Shown here: positions 7,470 to 41,522 of the stretch, one piece after another
Numbering within the stretch: position 1 is the stretch's first letter
Layout: each line of letters opens with the position of its first letter
Assembly (NCBI GenBank): GCA_964016885.1
Contig: OZ024742.1
Location: forward strand, 51,708,001-51,772,000
Direction: 5' to 3'
Source: Eledone cirrhosa
Lineage: Eukaryota
DNA length: 64,000 nucleotides
Notes under the pieces: model-generated
Databases searched by the model: none
Seen by the model: the letters and a program-made list of their open reading frames with translations, nothing else
What the model was told of the DNA's origin: nothing
Position numbers and translations under genes: made by a program

Positions 7470-9490
7470 TTGATGGTAAAGGATTGCTTTAAACATGCCC
7501 TAAGAATAGAAAGACTTACAAGTCAATTAATGGTTGATGTTTACGCCAAGATTGAAGCTGAACGGTTGGCATTCATTAAAAACAAACAAGCTAAACTTAG
7601 AGAAGAGCAATACATCCATTTGAGAGATGCCATTATGGAATGAATCCTTCCAGTGTTGGTCAGCCAGTCATTCTGTCATTCTGCTATATGGCTGAGCGCA
7701 CACAAGATGCCATGGCATATGTCAGAAAATTTGGTTGTCCAGAACTTTTCATTATATTTACATGCAATGGTAGTGGCCAGGAATTAAAAATGTACTGTTT
7801 GAACACTAATATGCAAAAGATAGACATGACATCATTGCCAGAGTTTTTTTATGAGAAACAGATGATCTTGATGTGGTTGCTAAAAGATGGACAAATCTTT
7901 GGCGAACTAAGATGTTGGCTTTACACTATTGAATGGCAGAAAATATGTCTTCCGCGTTCACATACGCTAATTTGGTGTTCTGACCACATTCACTCAGATC
8001 AAATTGATAAAATCATAAGCGCCGGATTGCCCGATCCTGACGAAAACCCAGAGCTATTTGCCATTATCTCAACATAAATGATACATGGTCCGTATGACAG
8101 TATCAACCCTAAGTGTGTGTGTGCATGGGAAATAACAAACGTGAAAAACGATATCCAAGGCCTTATCAACAAGAAACTGTAACTGGTGATGGCGGGTGTC
8201 CTCAATACAGACTGTGAAGTCCTCACTGTGGCAGAAAAACTGCGATTATCTAGATGCGAGTTCAAGACGTTCAGGTTTGTAACAATTGGGTCGTTCCCTA
8301 CAATGCTCTATTCTGCAAAATCCTGAGTACAACGCATCAGTAAAATAAATTAATTATGTTTGTAAATATGTCAACAAAGGTAGTGATATGGCACAATTTA
8401 CTATTGGTGGCGATAACCAATTGAAAGAAGTTAAAACATACCTAACAGGGAGATATATTTCTAGCAATGAAAGCATATGAAGAATCTCTGGTTTTGACAT
8501 ACACAATAGAGACCCAGCTGTATTGAACCTGGTAGACAATTTGGAAAATGGTCAAAAGGTATATTACACTGAAGAAAATGCACAATTGATTGCTGCATCT
8601 ACTCCAGACACAGTGTTCATTGCTTTTTTAAAGTTGTGTGGGAAGATGCCTTTGCTAAAACCTTGCTTTATCATGAGGTTCCCACATTCTACACATGGAA
8701 TAAAAACAAATGGAGCAGACGAAATATAGGCAATCATGTGGATGGCTATCAAGACATCAAAGAAAGTGGTGAAATAGGAAGAGTTTACACGGTCCATTCA
8801 AGACATAGGGAATGTTTCCATTTGAGATTACTCATTTACACTATTAGGGGGCCAACATCATTTGACAATATCAAAATTATACATAGAACTCCTTGTGCAA
8901 CGTATGCTGAAGCATGTAAATTACTTGGCTTACTTGAAGGAGGGGCATATTAGAAAAAGACATTGGAAGAGGCAGCTGCCACACAAATGCCTAAAAAGCT
9001 TCAACAGCTCTTGAATGTAAAGCTCACTACGTGGAATGTTTAAGATCCCTTGAGTCTCTAGGAAAGCTGCAAGGAAGACTTGTCGGAAGACATAATGCAC
9101 AGGGTCTAAATTCAAAACACAGCATTAATGTAGATGTTTTTCCACCTAACTCCAATGAAGCACTTTCAGAAATTAACAACCAACTGAGTGAAATTGGCTG
9201 ATCCCTTAAGGATTCCGGTTTACCAGAGCCTGAGTAGACAACTGCATACTCTATTGCACAGGATATATGAAACAATATTGACCAGTATCGACTAGAATGA
9301 AGGAGGCCTTTACTTTTTGGATGATCCTGGAGGAAATGGTAAAACCTTTATAATGGATCTCATATTAACAAAAGTAAGGCAGCGAAAGCAAGTTGCTTTT
9401 GCTGTTACATTAGGTGGTATTGATGCTATCTTAGTTAATGGAGGCCAAACAGCACACTCAACGTTCAAGTTGCCATATACTATGCACGAA
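7470..9490 (+). pseudogene. Helitron Rep/helicase pseudogene (HUH Rep domain + start of PIF1-like helicase)
   Basis: Motifs across frameshifts: VDVYAKIEAERL, QDAMAYVRKFGCPELFIIFTCN, YTIEWQKICLPRSH, NNWVVPYN, KYVNKGSD, GRYISSNE, IRGPTSF..YAEACKLLGLLE, FLDDPGGNGKTF (Walker A-like), GGQTAHSTFKLP. Confidence 0.92.
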
Positions 9491-27392: not shown

Positions 27393-29964
27393 GGACCACA
27401 AATTCGTGATCTGTGTGCTTGACTTAGATACGCTTCATAGACGACGACCCGGCTACTGGAAGCTAAACGCGTCCTTACCAGCGCGCAAGGCCTACAGAGA
27501 CCGGATTAGCGAACTAGTTAAGCGGGCGTTGACGGGGGCCATCGTTAACAACAAGTGGTGGTTTGCTCTGAAAGAGCGATTAGAATAGAGTCCATTAGGT
27601 TTAGTAAGGCTTTAGCAATAGAGAAAAATAGAGCAGAGGGAGAATTAGTTAGAAAATTAGACGAGGCACTTAGCAAAGGCATCGCGACCGACGTACTTGC
27701 GGCGAAATTGGCCCTTCACCAATTCTTCAATGCAAAGCACGAAGACTGCGTTGTCAGAGCTAGGGTGCGTGCTCTCAGACACGAGGGGACGAAAGCCGTT
27801 CAATGGGTCCGGGTGACGGAGGCGCGTCGTGGCAACAAAGCCACGACCCGGTCTTTGGTGGACCACGACGGGCGCATGCTAATCGATCCCGGGCAAATGA
27901 GTGAAGCTTTTCAGCGACACTTCGCTCAGCTGTTCGGGGGCAGCGGTGGGCCGGGTCGAGTGATGGACTTTAGTGTCTACCTCGACAGACTGCTGCGGTT
28001 CTCGGTCATTGGAGTGGAGTGTTGCGAAAAGCCGATAACAGCCGCTGAGGTACGGCAGCCAATGACTGGCTGCACAATGGATAAATCTCCTGGTTTGGAT
28101 GGTCTGCCCTATGAACTTTACGTACAGATGCCAGACTTGTTCGGAGGCCTCTTGGAGGACGTATTTTGCAACTGTTCAAGATTTTGGCCAAGATGCTAGA
28201 CAAGAGGTTGGCGCTTGTCGTTGGTGGTCTGGTGCGAGAGGCGCAGACATATGCCATAACCGACAGATCCATCCACGACAACCTCCACCTCATGCGATAC
28301 ATTGTAGCGAGGGTAGCTAGGGAGCCGGGTACGGGTGGGTCCTTGAACAATTTAGATCAGTCGAAAGCTTTCGATGGGGTCGACTATCCTTACCTAGCGG
28401 CATTCCTGAGGGCGGCTGGCTTTGGGCGCGTCTTCAGAAGCTGGATCGCTGCCAGGCACAGCGACATCTGCTCTGTGGTGAGAGTGAACGGTCACCTTTC
28501 GGAACCGTTCAACATCATGCGCTCGCTCCGCCAAGGATGTCCCCTCTCGTCCCTCTTGTACGTATTGACTCTCGGGACATTACTGCACAAACTGGAGACG
28601 TTGAGGGGTGTCCCGCGCGAACTAAGATGCGGAAGATCTGCGTCAGCATATGCGGACGATATCACCGTAGCGGTGTCGACGCCAAACACATCGAGGCGAT
28701 CGGCACTACACTAAGAGAATACGAAGCGGTGACAGGAGCAATGATCAACTAGGAAAAGTCAATGGGCCTGCAGCTCGGCACCTGGAGAGGCAGGTACATG
28801 CCATCCAACAGCGTCGTCGGGCGCTGGACGGACGGACCGGTTAAATTGCTAGGGGTCTGGTTCGGTCCGGACCTCCAGACGGACAAAAACTGGCACGAGG
28901 TGACGAGCAGGGTGGATTCTCTCTCCCAGAAATTGGCGGAGAGGAAGCTATCCCTGAAAGGTCGAGCGGAGGTGGCTAACGCGTACATTGCGTCTGTCAA
29001 CTACTACCGCCTGACCGTCGTACCTTGTCCTAAGCCTCGCCTGACTGCGCTGGAGCGTTTGCTCTTTCGCTTTTTGTGGAAGGGACGCGCTCCGATGGTC
29101 AGGCGGTCCATCTCCTGTCAACACCCGCTACGTGGAGGGCTGGGCAAGCCGTGGCTGATGATGCGCAGACACGCGCTCAGGCTACGGCATCTTCACCTCT
29201 TCCTCGGTGGTGCACATGTGTGGTCGCCGTTTGCTAGACACGTCTTTCCCCAGCTCGTCTCCTTGACGGAGCTGCAGTCCTGGGTAAAGCGAAGACCGAG
29301 AGGGAGCGCTTGGAGACTGGAATGTCTTCAGGCGCTCACAACCCTCGACCAATCGGGCAATGTGATCGGTGGAAACTCCTCCTTGGTGTTCTATAGAGGA
29401 TTAGGGGAGGGGAAGAGCGACGACGAAAATCAACTAGCCAATCACTTCGGAAGAACTTTCGGGCCGGGGCCTATGGACAACTTCCAGAAATCCCTGGCCT
29501 GGCAGGGCTACCGAGGAGCTTTGCCAGTCCGGGATAAACTCTACAGGCATGGAGGTGCCGTCAGCCAGGCATGTCCGAGATGCGCGCAGGGCGACGAAGC
29601 CGTCCTGCACGCACTCGTCCAGGGTCCGAGCATTGCTGACTTGTGGGTTTATGTCGAACACCTGCTTTCGTGTGTAGGACGGATCCAGCTATCAGCTGAG
29701 TCCATCGTGTGGATTGCCCCGCCCTCTTCCTTTAGCCGGGAAGGGCAGGCAGTTTTTATCTGTCTGGTGGCCATGGCGAAAGAGATAGTAGGGTGGACAC
29801 GTTTGAAAGGGCTGAAGACGAGCACTTACCTCTTCGGTGATGCCCTGATTAACTTTTTCAAATTTCATTTGAAAATGAAAATCAGAGTAGAGAGGGAAGT
29901 ACTCTCTTCCCAGCATTTTGTTGAAAGATGGGTGAAAGAAGCCAGTATGGCCCGTGTATATTAG
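27388..29964 (+). mobile_element. 5'-truncated Tx1/L1-clade LINE ORF2 (APE C-terminus, RT, C-terminal Zn knuckle), frameshifted
   Basis: DHKFV..GYWKLNASL, KSPGLDGLPYELY, SIHDNLHLMR, LDQSKAFD, RQGCPLS, AYADD, CPRC..E..H. GC-rich relative to flanks, with an internal deletion near 28170. Confidence 0.93.
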
Positions 29965-30474
29965 GAGGGAGGGGTGAAGTTGTTAGAAGTATAGTTGAAG
30001 GAGTGGTTTTTCGATAGCAGTGAGAATTCTTGGTGGCAGTGAGTAATTAGATTCCCATCTGTTGTTTTGACATTTTTTATAGAATATATTATTGGTTATT
30101 TTTCTAAATCTATAGAAGGATTAGAGATAGTAAAGATATGCGTGGTTGGTTTTGTGTTTGCACTTAATTAACATTCAGACTTAAATTTTTCTTTCAAGTG
30201 TACGTATCCTTTCACCCACGCATTCACACACAAATATATTTGCACACCTCTACAAAATACATATACTCACAATTCACATATTCATACTTACATATATATA
30301 CACATGTATACACATATATATACACACATGTATTCATGTACATACATACGCGCTCATGTGTATACATTTTCATACTCAACTTATCTTTATATACACACGT
30401 ATAGACACACACATATATAGATACATACTCTAGTCCATGTGTACACACATACACATACATACACATCCATATAC

Positions 30475-36984: not shown

Positions 36985-37612
36985 TCTGTCGCTTAGTCTT
37001 GTGGACCGATTGGACAACTTGACTACAAGCTCCTACCATTCTTCTCGCTTCTCCGTCCTCCTCATGGTTGCAACCAGCATCACGCCTGTACATTCCGGGA
37101 CGTTGTCCTGCCATCCCTTTTTCAGTGTATCTCTCTTCCTCCCACCTTTGTACTATTCCCTGCAGGACAGACTTGGCAAGCCCTGAAGATCTTGTAACGG
37201 GACCGTATCATCTCAATTTGCGTTTTGTTTTATAATTGTCAGTAGGTCTTCGTAGGATAAGTGATCTCTGTAGATGATTCCAAGGAGCTTTCTGAAGCAT
37301 AACATCCATATAGCCTGTATCTTTCTTTCCAGATCTGCTGTGATTGTCCAAGACTCTCAGACATGCAAGTATATGGACTTGATTAGATAGCGAATCAGTC
37401 TGATTTTTCAGCTGAGAGCTATTCCAGATGGTCTTAGGTTTTGTAAATGATGCCGTGGCTTGGGAAGGTCTGGTGAGTACTTCGGGATCCCATGTATTAT
37501 AAGCTGTTAACGCGCTCTAGTTTCCCACCGTTGGCCCCTATGTCAGTGCCGATGCCGTTGTTTTGTTGGCCATCAATTTGGTATTTTCTGCACTGATATG
37601 CATGCTGTAGGT
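36985..37612 (-). mobile_element. RTE-clade LINE, 3' portion
   Basis: Minus strand MHISAENTKLMANK..RKLR*YG.VTR..GLAKSVLQG. It continues in frame from the piece at 40997-41520. Confidence 0.85.
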
Positions 37613-39962
37613 CAGGCATGTTAAACTGAGGATCCTCCAAAGGACACTTGGGTCACATATGTGTTGTCTGAGGACCGCACACGACAACTAATTGTGCACA
37701 TTACCACTAATTAAACTCACTTAATAAAATTTATTGCAGACAAATTTTTTACTTAAATTCAGAAACATACAATCTACATACAAATATTTTAGCAGCATTT
37801 ATGAATACAAAGTAATGAAGTGGTTTCACAAAAGACTAAAATTTTAAATGGTAACATATATTTGAAGCCTGCAACAGCAATAAAATACATTGTACAAAAA
37901 TGACAACAGTTCAAAACTGAACATTTATGTGCTACTATTCAACCACCTTTAGTGTTTTGTCCTGAGGTTTGACACCTCTTTTTGTTGACATTTTTTGTAA
38001 TGTCTGGTTTAAATGTCTGTACAGTTCCGACTTTGATCAGAGATGACGTGTTGATCAGTCAGCCTTGTTTTCTGAGAAGTTTTTAATTTCATGAAGGAAA
38101 ATAACTGTTCACACACATAGGTAAAACCAAACATTGCCATAATCTTTGTGGCAACCTTTCTGAAGTTTTTTAACTTTTCAGGAAGGTATGAAAAGAAACC
38201 AGGTATCCCCACTAAAAGATACGTTGCTTTGAGTGTAGAATCTGACTGCATTTCCAATATTTCCACCTGAAGGTTTTCTTCTGCCTTGACAACATCAAAA
38301 GGGAATGGTGCTGAGAATAATGCAAACTGATGTTCAAAAGATGAGAAATCACAAGATCCTTCCTGAAATTCATTTGACAACAATTCCAGGTGACTGTCAT
38401 ACTTAGCAAAGCTAATTTCAGAATCAGTATTGGCAGTATTTTTCAGCTCTTTGCACGTAGGAAAAATAACTAAATTTCATTTTACAACAGTGACCTCCAT
38501 AAGCTTAGTTTTCTAATGAAGCACTTTATGTCATCGTATAACTGAGTGATGAGTTTGTTTTTGCCTTGTAATTTCACATTAAGATGAGTTAATTGTGCAG
38601 CAAAAGCCACATCTTGGAGCTAACTTTCATCTTTTATTTCATCTGTGTTTTGACATTTCATCTCCAAAAACATAATTATTTCTTGTCTCAACAAATTGAA
38701 TCTTTTCAGCACTTAGTGACAACCATCAGAATTCTGTGTAGAATAGGACATCGGTGAACTGATTATTCATATCTTCCAATAACTGGATGAACTGACGGCG
38801 GTTGAGAGCACGACGACCTCTGACATTGTGACGAAACTAAGCACATAATGCAATTTTAAAATCTTTGAACACACATTTTGCTGATGAATAATACAGTGAA
38901 AATGTGCAAATTATGAACCTGGATGCACGTTTCCTATTTTTGCTTGTAAATTCGCAGCACAGTCAGTAGAAAAGCATGCCAATTTACTCAAAACCATAGT
39001 CATGCAGAACCTGCTCGACCTTCACAAAGATGTCATGGCTGTTATAGTGTCATGCATGGGGACCAGTTCAATCATTTCTTCATAAATATTAAATTCACTG
39101 TCACAGGCCCTGATGAAGAATGCAAGCTGTGCTATTCCAGTGATGTCAACGGTTTCATCAATAGCAATAGAAAATATTCAAACCTTGATGATACAGCCTC
39201 CAACTGTTGTTTCAGATCACCTGACATTTCATCAAACCGTTCAGCAACATGTTGCTGGTTAATGAAATATCTTTGAATAACAGTGCATTCTCTGGACCTA
39301 CAATTTCAGCTGTTTTTACAAGGCATTGCTTTACAGAATCTCCTTCACTGTAAGGTTTCCCACATATGGCGATCATTCGACTGAGTTCATAGCTTGCAGT
39401 AACGGAAGTGACATTCTCTTCCTGAATTTACATAAAACAGGTATGTTGCTGTGTCAAGTTAGCCTTGGATTCCTTGAGTCTTGAAACACGTATTGGGCCT
39501 TCATATTTATAGCAAGATCGATGGTTCGTTTCATAATGCCTTTTTAAATTGTACTCTTTTGGCGTGGCGATGCAGTTGCGGCAAATTAAAGTGTATCTTT
39601 CCGTTCACCGTTGTGTAAACATACTGTAATTCCCACTTTTCTTGAAACACTCGGCTTTGTTCGTTCAATTTCCTTTTTCTCTTAGCTGGAGGACCACTAG
39701 CCATTTAAAAAAAAAATAACTTTTGAAATTTTGAAAGAAAGTTTTCTGTTTACAACTGTTAATGAGCTGCGCGTTATTCGTCAAAAGTTAAAAGTAGTTG
39801 ACAAAAATCGCACCAAAAAAAAAAACAATCGTATCGAAATTTGTTATTTAATTTAAATTACGAAGATAAAACATGCTCGCGCTGTAAAAACCTTTCTGTA
39901 GGCCGCATGTGTGCTTGCAAGCGGCCGCATGCAGCACGCGGGCCGGATGTTTGACATGCCTG
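37613..39962 (-). mobile_element. hAT DNA transposon (Charlie/SPIN/GTF2IRD2-like), full length with decayed transposase
   Basis: TIRs CAGGCATGTTAAAC / GTTTGACATGCCTG. Motifs RVFQEKWELQY, KEYNLKRHYETNH, FSIAIDETVDIT and the dimerisation motif AMFGFTYVCEQLFSFMK..RLTD. Confidence 0.93.
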
Positions 39963-40023
39963 GTCTAGATAAATGAAAAACAAAACGAGAATGTAGTTTA
40001 TGGAGCACCCAAATGATTTAGAA

Positions 40024-40457
40024 GTCGACCTTAAGTAGGAGCAATAACGTTAAGAAAGACATGAACGACACCACATGATATTGTATTGAAATTTTTGAAT
40101 GTAGGTTTATAAGCATGAACTTCCAGTAGATTTTCGTATTTGTCTCTGTGGCAGGTACTTGAGATGGTGGAGGTCCTGGGCTTGGGTTCAATCCTGGTCA
40201 AGAAGTACGTGTAATCTTTTTCAGTTTTTATTTTACATCCCATAGAAAAAAAACTTTAACGGCTTACCTACTTCAGACAAAGATCGAACTTCAGACCAGG
40301 ATCACCACCAGCTATGATTCTTTCAACTAGGCCACCGAGACAGTAACAAAAGTGTGGTGAAAATTAATAATTATAAACCTACTTTCAAAATCAAAGTTAA
40401 AAAGATGTGTGTCGTCCATGGCTTTCTTCGAGCTATTAGTCATATTTAGAGTTGACT
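40024..40457. repeat. Diverged fold-back/MITE-like element inside the hAT passenger segment
   Basis: TTTTGAATGTAGGTTTATAA pairs with TTATAAACCTACTTTCAAAA, and AAGAAAGACATGAACGACAC pairs with GTGTCGTCCATGGCTTTCTT, in inverted order. Confidence 0.6.
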
Positions 40458-40794
40458 TGTCAATCTTCTGGCTCTTTGGTGACGACCTTATTATGCGTAT
40501 GTTTGATTAACTGATGAATTAATTTAATTTAGTTAATTTAACAAACAAATAATATATATATATGTGTGTGTGTGTATGTGTACGTGTGTGTGTGTGTATA
40601 ATGCCAGTCATTGTAAGTTTAAATCTAACTGACATGCAAATATATATATATATATGAATAAGGTAACCCCAAATCATAGATACAAATATCACAGAGAGAA
40701 AGAGAGAGAAAGAGATAGAGAGGGGAGGAGGAGGGGGAGAAATGAGGCGCGACAGCAATGAAACAAGCTTTACAGGTTAAAATATAGTCTAGAT

Positions 40795-40996
40795 CAGGCA
40801 TGTCAAACTGAGGGTCCCCGAGGGCCACATAGATCACATATGTGTTGTCTGAGGAACACATACGACAACTAATTGCACACATTACATCTATTTTTTATTT
40901 TATTTTATATTACGAAGATAAAACATGTTCGCGCTGTAAAAGCCTTTGTGCGCGCCGCATGTGTGTTTGCAAAGGGCCCCATGTTTGACATGCCCG
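40795..40996 (-). mobile_element. 202-bp internally deleted non-autonomous derivative of the adjacent hAT
   Basis: Same TIRs (CAGGCATGTCAAAC / GTTTGACATGCCCG). Subterminal sequences match both ends of 37613-39962. Confidence 0.92.
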
Positions 40997-41522
40997 CTGT
41001 AGGTAGTAGATGTCTTGTCAAGTCTTTCCACTAGGTTGGCTACCTCCTCTTCCTTCCCTGATACACCTTCTATGTCGTCGGCAAAACACAAGTTCATAAC
41101 AGTCCTGTCGCTAATCTGACTGTCCCTTCATTGTCATCCAGTGTGTCTGTCATAATTCACTCTAGGAAGATGTTGAAGGGAGTTGGAGAGAGCAAACAGC
41201 CATGTCTTACTCCGACAGTGGTTCTGAACGAGTCTCCAACGTTTCTATTAAAGTAGACTGCGCTGGTGGCTTTGTCATATAGGTACCGCATTATCCTGAT
41301 CAAATGCCCATTGATGATCTACAGCTTCATTACAACACACAGTGTTGCGTGCCAAGGCCTGCCGAACGCATTCTTGAAGTACTCGAAGTTGTTGTAGAGG
41401 TCGTGCTGATGGAGTACCTTTCGCATATTATTCTAAGGTTGAATATCTACTCTGTTGTGCTTTGCCCTGCTCCGAAGCCTGCTTGTTCTTCAGCGATAAT
41501 ATTTTGTGCTTGCGGCTTCAGT
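40997..41522 (-). mobile_element. RTE-clade LINE RT fragment
   Basis: EEQAGFGAG.STTE, VGVRHGCLLSPTPFNIFLE, NLCFADDIEG, LVERLDKTSTTY. Confidence 0.9.

Follow-up and report, generated by a model that had tools for sequence, protein, structure and literature searches.

A mobile compound hAT family built around one permuted period of an abundant repeat in Eledone cirrhosa

Introduction

In maize, macrotransposons of the hAT elements Ac/Ds and the compound Ds-l4-483 use their outer ends to move the DNA that lies between an autonomous and a non-autonomous element, and a new target site duplication (TSD) arises where they insert (PMC3260210). Here we analyze a window of 64,000 nucleotides of Eledone cirrhosa DNA (assembly GCA_964016885.1, contig OZ024742.1, positions 51,708,001 to 51,772,000, forward strand), in which a 2350-bp hAT element (A) and a 202-bp hAT element (B) flank an 816-bp passenger within positions 37605-41004. 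This block is almost certainly a copy of a mobile compound hAT family. The maize cases are single events or concern a single element, whereas dozens of copies exist here, built of two complete elements, each with one copy of a founder's TSD at its inner end and, between the two, a permuted repeat period. In the literature outside Repbase, Dfam, most subscription journals and supplements, we found no account of this family, nor of any multi-copy hAT compound with a split founder TSD.

Several other systems resemble the block in part. The KolobokP composite-like transposons have two direct terminal modules, each with its own terminal inverted repeats (TIRs), and the hAT compound has equivalents of their solos, multimers and LTDR-(INT)n-LTDR forms as well as of the excision of a single module (PMC9587614). 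They belong, however, to Kolobok, with identical modules and a central transposase; here the modules measure 2350 and 202 bp, the transposase lies in the left one, and the middle is non-coding. KolobokP is defined by a Kolobok transposase and a His-Me nuclease between identical LTDRs, and what we found was a hAT-type transposase in the left module. Teratorn, a fusion of piggyBac with a herpesvirus, is likewise a permuted unit between two transposon copies, proposed to derive from a transposon-bearing concatemer; its flanking copies are identical piggyBac elements and its cargo is viral and 180 kb long, in contrast to an 816-bp host repeat (PMC10175614).

Multicopy animal Pack-TIRs are TIR elements that were amplified together with other DNA and have distinct TSDs. 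They are rare in animals (four cases, 1.4%, among them a frog hAT case on three chromosomes), and the copy number of the hAT compound is about ten times higher (PMC8277862). Their cargo lies inside one element, at microhomology breakpoints, whereas here it lies between two whole elements and is bounded by a TSD (PMC8277862). In the block the cargo is not enclosed in a single element: intact TIRs and an 8-bp duplication bound it. Cointegrates formed by IS6/IS26 have a TSD geometry of the kind seen here. Elements in direct orientation also flank the cargo of bacterial composite transposons (PMC9587614); unlike in those or in IS6/IS26, no replicative mechanism is shown or needed in our case, and an excision footprint (at locus L155, see below) suggests cut-and-paste. 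An inner TSD pair around a circularly permuted molecule, as in a cointegrate, is present, but at the diagnostic sites the flanking elements are neither identical nor reciprocally chimeric. The block is not a classical cointegrate, a Pack-TIR or a KolobokP; it is a compound transposon made of hAT elements.

Results and discussion

The block moved as one unit

The arrangement is exact to the base. The 8-mer CTGTAGGT stands at both outer ends (37605-37612 and 40997-41004), and the 8-mer GTCTAGAT at both inner ones (39963-39970 and 40787-40794). Between the outer and inner words lie element A (37613-39962, minus strand) and element B (40795-40996), and all four of their ends carry the same TIR of about 14 bp (CAGGCATGTCAAAC) with 0-1 mismatch. 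The passenger is 832 bp long when the two inner 8-mers are counted. A sequence-only reading of the window had reported these 8-mers, both hAT elements and the reciprocal outer and inner matches, and every position in it proved correct.

The block interrupts a host retroposon on the minus strand, of which the downstream part lies at 37000-37604 (left limit approximate; colinear with other host copies across the empty site) and the upstream part, with a FADD motif, at 41005-41500 (right limit approximate). When the outer flanks are joined without the block, a reverse-transcriptase frame (..FADDIEGVSGKEEEVANLVERLDKTSTTYSMHISAENTKLM..) is recovered, and all nine other copies of the host retroposon that we fetched have a single 8-mer at the insertion position. 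The entire 3384-bp block thus has CTGTAGGT as its TSD, which is specific to this insertion. The earlier claim that removal of the block restores an RTE frame therefore stands as to the frame; the name RTE comes from the FADD frame and from that reading only, and a Pfam profile search of the host retroposon gave no match.

Contigs (three runs from one sample, possibly the one that was assembled) bridge both outer junctions and the junction of A with the passenger, with 0-1 differences, while no listed contig piece of those three runs bridges the junction of the passenger with B. A misassembly is ruled out by 23 further copies with both outer ends.

A family with renewed outer and constant inner TSDs

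Using the two inner junctions and the left end as queries, and fetching and mapping the loci obtained, we identified 67 loci with at least one inner junction. Scaled from pattern counts, the family comprises about 40-57 copies at 5-7% divergence. In the 24 copies with both ends, the two outer 8-mers differ at 0, 1, 2 and 3 positions in 9, 6, 7 and 2 cases, respectively, that is, by at most one mismatch in 15 and at most two in 22, and the left words are of 23 distinct kinds. Among mispaired outer flanks, used as a control, only 5 of 552 (0.9%) agreed within one mismatch. The inner flanks, in turn, equal GTCTAGAT within one mismatch at 43 of the 48 right junctions of A and at 39 of the 42 left junctions of B. 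Since the outer TSDs are particular to each copy and the inner 8-mers constant, the exchange of flanks was made once, in the founder, and the outer TSD was renewed at each jump. The block did move as a whole, as had been proposed, but the swap ascribed to this locus is instead the inherited architecture of the family: two elements with complete ends around other DNA and, at unrelated loci, a fresh TSD beyond the outermost ends.

The count of 24 includes L135, entered by hand, and L128, whose left end may belong to a neighbouring solo element. It leaves out L133 (a separate solo B), L146 and L147 (ends unresolved), and L211, whose left end was called one base off although its 8-mers match by eye. 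About 23 of the 40 long-element copies nearest to the A of the window are composite, in a sample biased to that copy.

Single copies have changed since insertion in diverse ways. At L142 the flanks of A-left, B-left and B-right are all GTCTATAT, which suggests conversion of the inner 8-mer to the outer TSD, unless this is a coincidence. L145/L219 (G000:C3:328448000-328451200) is a composite in which the B half and the outer TSD were inverted after insertion. Minisatellites have formed from the short element at L211 (57-61-bp units from its right end plus flank) and at L249 (31-bp units from its left end). Four solo A copies, at G000:C25:20069856, 20085928 and 20358667 (L210, L212, L213) and at 23414713 (L207), have the TSD ATGTAGGT and flanks in common and reflect segmental duplication.

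Elements A and B are hAT elements of separate lineages

The transposase frame of A, which begins at 39704 (minus strand), is broken in the window, but in the sister copy L131 it is open over 521 amino acids. The nearest Atlas clusters to this frame are GTF2IRD2/FAM200-ZBED5 (0.97), and Pfam gives Dimer_Tnp_hAT (E 0.0023) and a Spin-doc finger (E 2.2e-5), both below the cut-off; a comparison with PDB gave no match. The motifs AIDET, STDGA, CEQLFS and CIIH can be read in it by eye, and the frame shows a DDE transposase with CxxH and the hAT C-terminal region. Solo B copies, like the composites, are flanked by 8-bp duplications. Judged from sequence features (8-bp TSD, short TIRs, transposase and target preference), A and B are assigned to the hAT superfamily; A is a Buster/Charlie/GTF2IRD2-like element, of a group that we take to be Buster/Charlie, and B a non-autonomous derivative of A's family, a MITE that is also abundant as a solo with its own TSDs.

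The sequence shared by A and B is limited to positions 1-100 (83%) and 2227-2319 (85%) of A. Four sites within it are diagnostic (left positions 26, 64 and 82 and right position 176), and at these the composite elements carry the letters of their solo counterparts, A those of solo A and B those of solo B. Position 26 is A in 33 of 36 composite A and in all eight solo A, and G in 33 of 37 composite B and 25 of 27 solo B; position 176 is C in 33 of 42 composite A and 7 of 9 solo A, and T in 31 of 35 composite B and 23 of 26 solo B (the solo B were chosen by their likeness to the B of the window). Composite B also has a private mark, T at 134, in 29 of 35. The two elements differ at five or more places over about 200 shared bases, each resembling its own solo family, and these lineage-specific letters indicate that A and B diverged before they met. 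Their ends, whose possible chimerism the sequence-only reading had raised, are not chimeric at the diagnostic sites. No diagnostic site lies in the last 46 bp, so that a crossover within the last 26-46 bp would be invisible.

Alignment of composite with solo A shows differences in 3 of 2402 columns. Their divergence from the commonest letters is similar (5.2% and 5.5%, respectively), which points to one old burst.

The passenger is one permuted period of a free repeat

The left 583 bp of the passenger correspond to a high-copy repeat, at about 85% identity, with 3044 first-look candidates; we estimate roughly 800-1400 intact junctions. In 29 of 35 free loci a single GTCTAGAT connects the right end of the passenger to its left end, and nine of the 35 loci have two or more units in tandem. 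Exact 27-base empty junctions number 192 genome-wide, against 13 and 10 exact filled ones; of the 192 listed, 19 belong to a single array, and some are from within multi-unit composites. The part that naturally follows GTCTAGAT in the unit (P1, 39971-40552, plus strand) comes first in the passenger and the part that naturally precedes it (P2, 40597-40786, plus strand) last. They meet in a (TA)n(TG)n tract at 40553-40596, which is the natural head-to-tail junction of two units as found in the free arrays L181, L190 and L220 (3 of 35 free loci by a strict probe). The passenger is one circularly permuted period of an abundant repeat, permuted through GTCTAGAT.

The permutation is what the earlier reading had predicted, but the novel junction that it expected inside the passenger is the natural one of free arrays. 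Nor is there a unique donor locus: the passenger is a repeat. Composite passengers have marks in common, for instance A at position 123 of P1 in 47 of 55, against 10 of 39 free copies, as expected of one founder.

The passenger is non-coding and bears microsatellites. An RNA gene was considered and rejected: ARAGORN made no prediction, and Rfam gave only two sub-threshold microsatellite matches. P1 contains an old imperfect palindrome (40009-40471, arm identity 66%) with converging tRNA-like arms, in which motifs resembling an A box and, in each arm, a B box can be seen by eye; neither ARAGORN nor Rfam calls it.

Free units have (TA)n on both sides and usually ride in a second, unrelated TIR family, which is non-autonomous, with the ends CAGTGGCGGACT...AGTCCGCCACTG (loci L184, L190, L220 and L229). 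At L229 it has an apparent 8-bp TSD, and its own right end is duplicated around the units. The same cargo is hence found in two unrelated families, permuted differently in the hAT compound and in the second TIR family. At G000:C1:441188368-441218679 (L259, L260), 19 or more units of about 1684 bp stand in tandem; every unit has a tRNA-Ser(TGA) gene and a second-family fragment that includes the empty GTCTAGAT junction.

Target preference and the number of founding insertions

A dominant target site could in principle make the inner match a coincidence. From 52 paired sites, the preferred target of the family is RTN-NTNTANAN-NAY, in which positions 4-5 are TA for 96% of the weight, and two independent sites would be identical about once in 611. 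A preference for nnnTAnnn is a feature of the Buster/Charlie group. GTCTAGAT is modelled as a target about once in 317 and is the TSD of none of the 52 sites, which rules out coincidence of this kind; unpaired ends on it were seen elsewhere twice (L215, L243). Within one repeat unit it is among the top two or three sites, with 17-36% of the target weight. It is a good target, not a dominant one. None of the grounds on which the sequence-only reading would have been abandoned was found: the assembly is sound, the target is not dominant, and the passenger is permuted, not colinear.

This standing of GTCTAGAT within the unit, and the separate lineages of A and B, are what would be seen if the two elements had inserted independently at the same site in adjacent tandem units, followed by macrotransposition. 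The numbers speak against it. We roughly expect 0.1-0.4 insertions of B at this site among all units, but a second element at one given site only 6e-5 times (copy numbers being first-look candidate counts, and target weights coming from the analysis of the 35 free loci), so that one TSD-making event is far likelier than two. A hot spot should also have left simple insertions among some 1000 free units, and none was found in the 37 and 27 pattern matches examined. We regard two independent insertions as improbable. Reinsertion of reversed ends into their own intervening segment was rejected too: it needs A and B to sit in the two (TA)n tracts of one unit, and is no likelier than two insertions.

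Origin of the compound unit

Variant copies bear on how the unit arose. Many composites have two or more passenger units. Four loci (L115, L139, L152 and L242) have B on both sides of the passenger (B-P-B), with matching outer TSDs at L152 and L242, and their left B copies bear the marks of composite B. At L155 (oriented 7803-7850) a composite has lost A alone, and what remains there is part of the outer TSD with a 15-bp inverted copy of the inner flank; this gap, as read from the sequence, resembles the footprint expected of hairpin-type hAT excision and points to ordinary cut-and-paste. L128 has a solo, A on the left and B in the rest, with the TSD of the composite.

The account that we favour, to which we give an even chance, is a single B insertion followed by duplication of the unit and recruitment of the transposase-bearing A. 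One B would have inserted at GTCTAGAT in a tandem-prone unit, duplicating GTCTAGAT. The unit, with B in it, would then have been duplicated by unequal exchange between its flanking (TA)n tracts, giving B-GTCTAGAT-P-GTCTAGAT-B, and the inner 8-mers would be the halves of one founder TSD, turned inside out as the unit became periodic. A transposase could next have used the outer ends. Later, the left B would have given way to A by crossover or template switch within the last 26-46 bp, where no diagnostic difference between A and B exists; template switching has been proposed for multicopy Pack-TIRs (PMC8277862), and the process invoked here is of the same kind. The resulting A-P-B, now autonomous, would have amplified in the burst of solo A, and one copy would have entered this retroposon and decayed. 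Among these elements of the account, the family itself, its per-copy outer TSDs and constant inner 8-mers, the permuted period, the separate lineages of A and B and the mobile B-P-B are observed. Tandem duplication is the commonest observed way to a periodic unit, and B-P-B would be its direct product if the founder was B.

Several findings weigh against this order of events. B-P-B is rare (four loci) and could equally come from A-P-B by unequal exchange. The recruitment of A falls in 46 bp of sequence free of A/B marks. The simple donor P2-GTCTAGAT-B-GTCTAGAT-P1 is absent among all 37 and 27 pattern matches. Trees of A and of P1 are star-like and do not give the order of events. Finally, the B of the window copy and that of L111 have the A-type letter at 176, and composite B is polymorphic at positions 18/20, so that later conversion has blurred the history. 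Around solos, where flanks of 1-1.5 kb were covered, we found no simple insertion P2-GTCTAGAT-hAT-GTCTAGAT-P1 and no B...A precursor, and nine 10-kb neighbour stretches (L250-L258) did not contain a missing B.

The same arrangement could have started from A. Duplication of A with its unit, or cointegration through sister-chromatid transposition, would give A-P-A, whose right copy shrank to B by internal deletion and went on to seed the free B family. B is indeed a deletion derivative of A, and at left-end position 20 the letter A is found in 29 of 36 composite A and also in 25 of 37 composite B. However, none of the 67 junction loci is A-P-A; B differs from A by about 2.5%, against 0.12% between composite and solo A; and solo B copies with the 18A/20A marks, without the private marks of composite B, do occur (L246). 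We consider this route very improbable.

The sequence-only reading had offered two routes, a captured circle or a tandemly duplicated hAT locus moving as one. The duplication route is the one favoured here, but simple duplication of one element leaves the lineage difference between A and B unexplained. The circle would explain it, in one step that also yields unchimeric ends, a single TSD shared between two elements and a passenger of exactly one period with the natural junction, and that accounts for the missing donor and for A-P-B being the dominant form. A one-unit circle, looped out between (TA)n tracts, would have been taken up once, and B-P-B would have come later by unequal exchange. 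In one version, A's right end and the left end of a B nearby would have served as a pair of reversed ends and inserted into the circle at GTCTAGAT; in the other, the circle would already have borne B and recombined into a chromosomal A inside the terminal 26-46 bp. The latter is the cointegrate of the earlier reading. Circles and permuted segments of intervening DNA do arise from reversed Ac/Ds ends (PMC3470690). This route needs a germ-line circle as target, itself hypothetical; a crossover anywhere inside the diagnostic region is excluded; and tandem duplication, common among free loci as noted above, produces the same sequence, since a circle of one unit and one period of an array are identical. 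Tandem duplication accounts for the geometry, so the circle is not required, and we regard its capture as a tentative alternative. It is in our view doubtful that an extrachromosomal circle was taken up in an animal germ line by a hAT transposase acting on the ends of two different elements, and that this founded a self-propagating compound of about 50 copies. If true, the block would be the fossil of a circle captured through alternative transposition, a composite transposon of bacterial style founded in one traceable step.

Implications and other features of the window

The block shows that in an animal genome a macrotransposon of hAT elements can turn into a stable, autonomous family, and with the founding TSD kept in every copy, the sequence lets one trace how a composite transposon was born. 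Annotators should be aware that a single hAT copy whose TSDs do not match may be part of a compound unit. The family is inactive and its cargo a non-coding repeat, so its impact on the host is probably small. Elsewhere in the window, whose GC content is 33%, a GC-rich island (55%) lies at 28001-30000.

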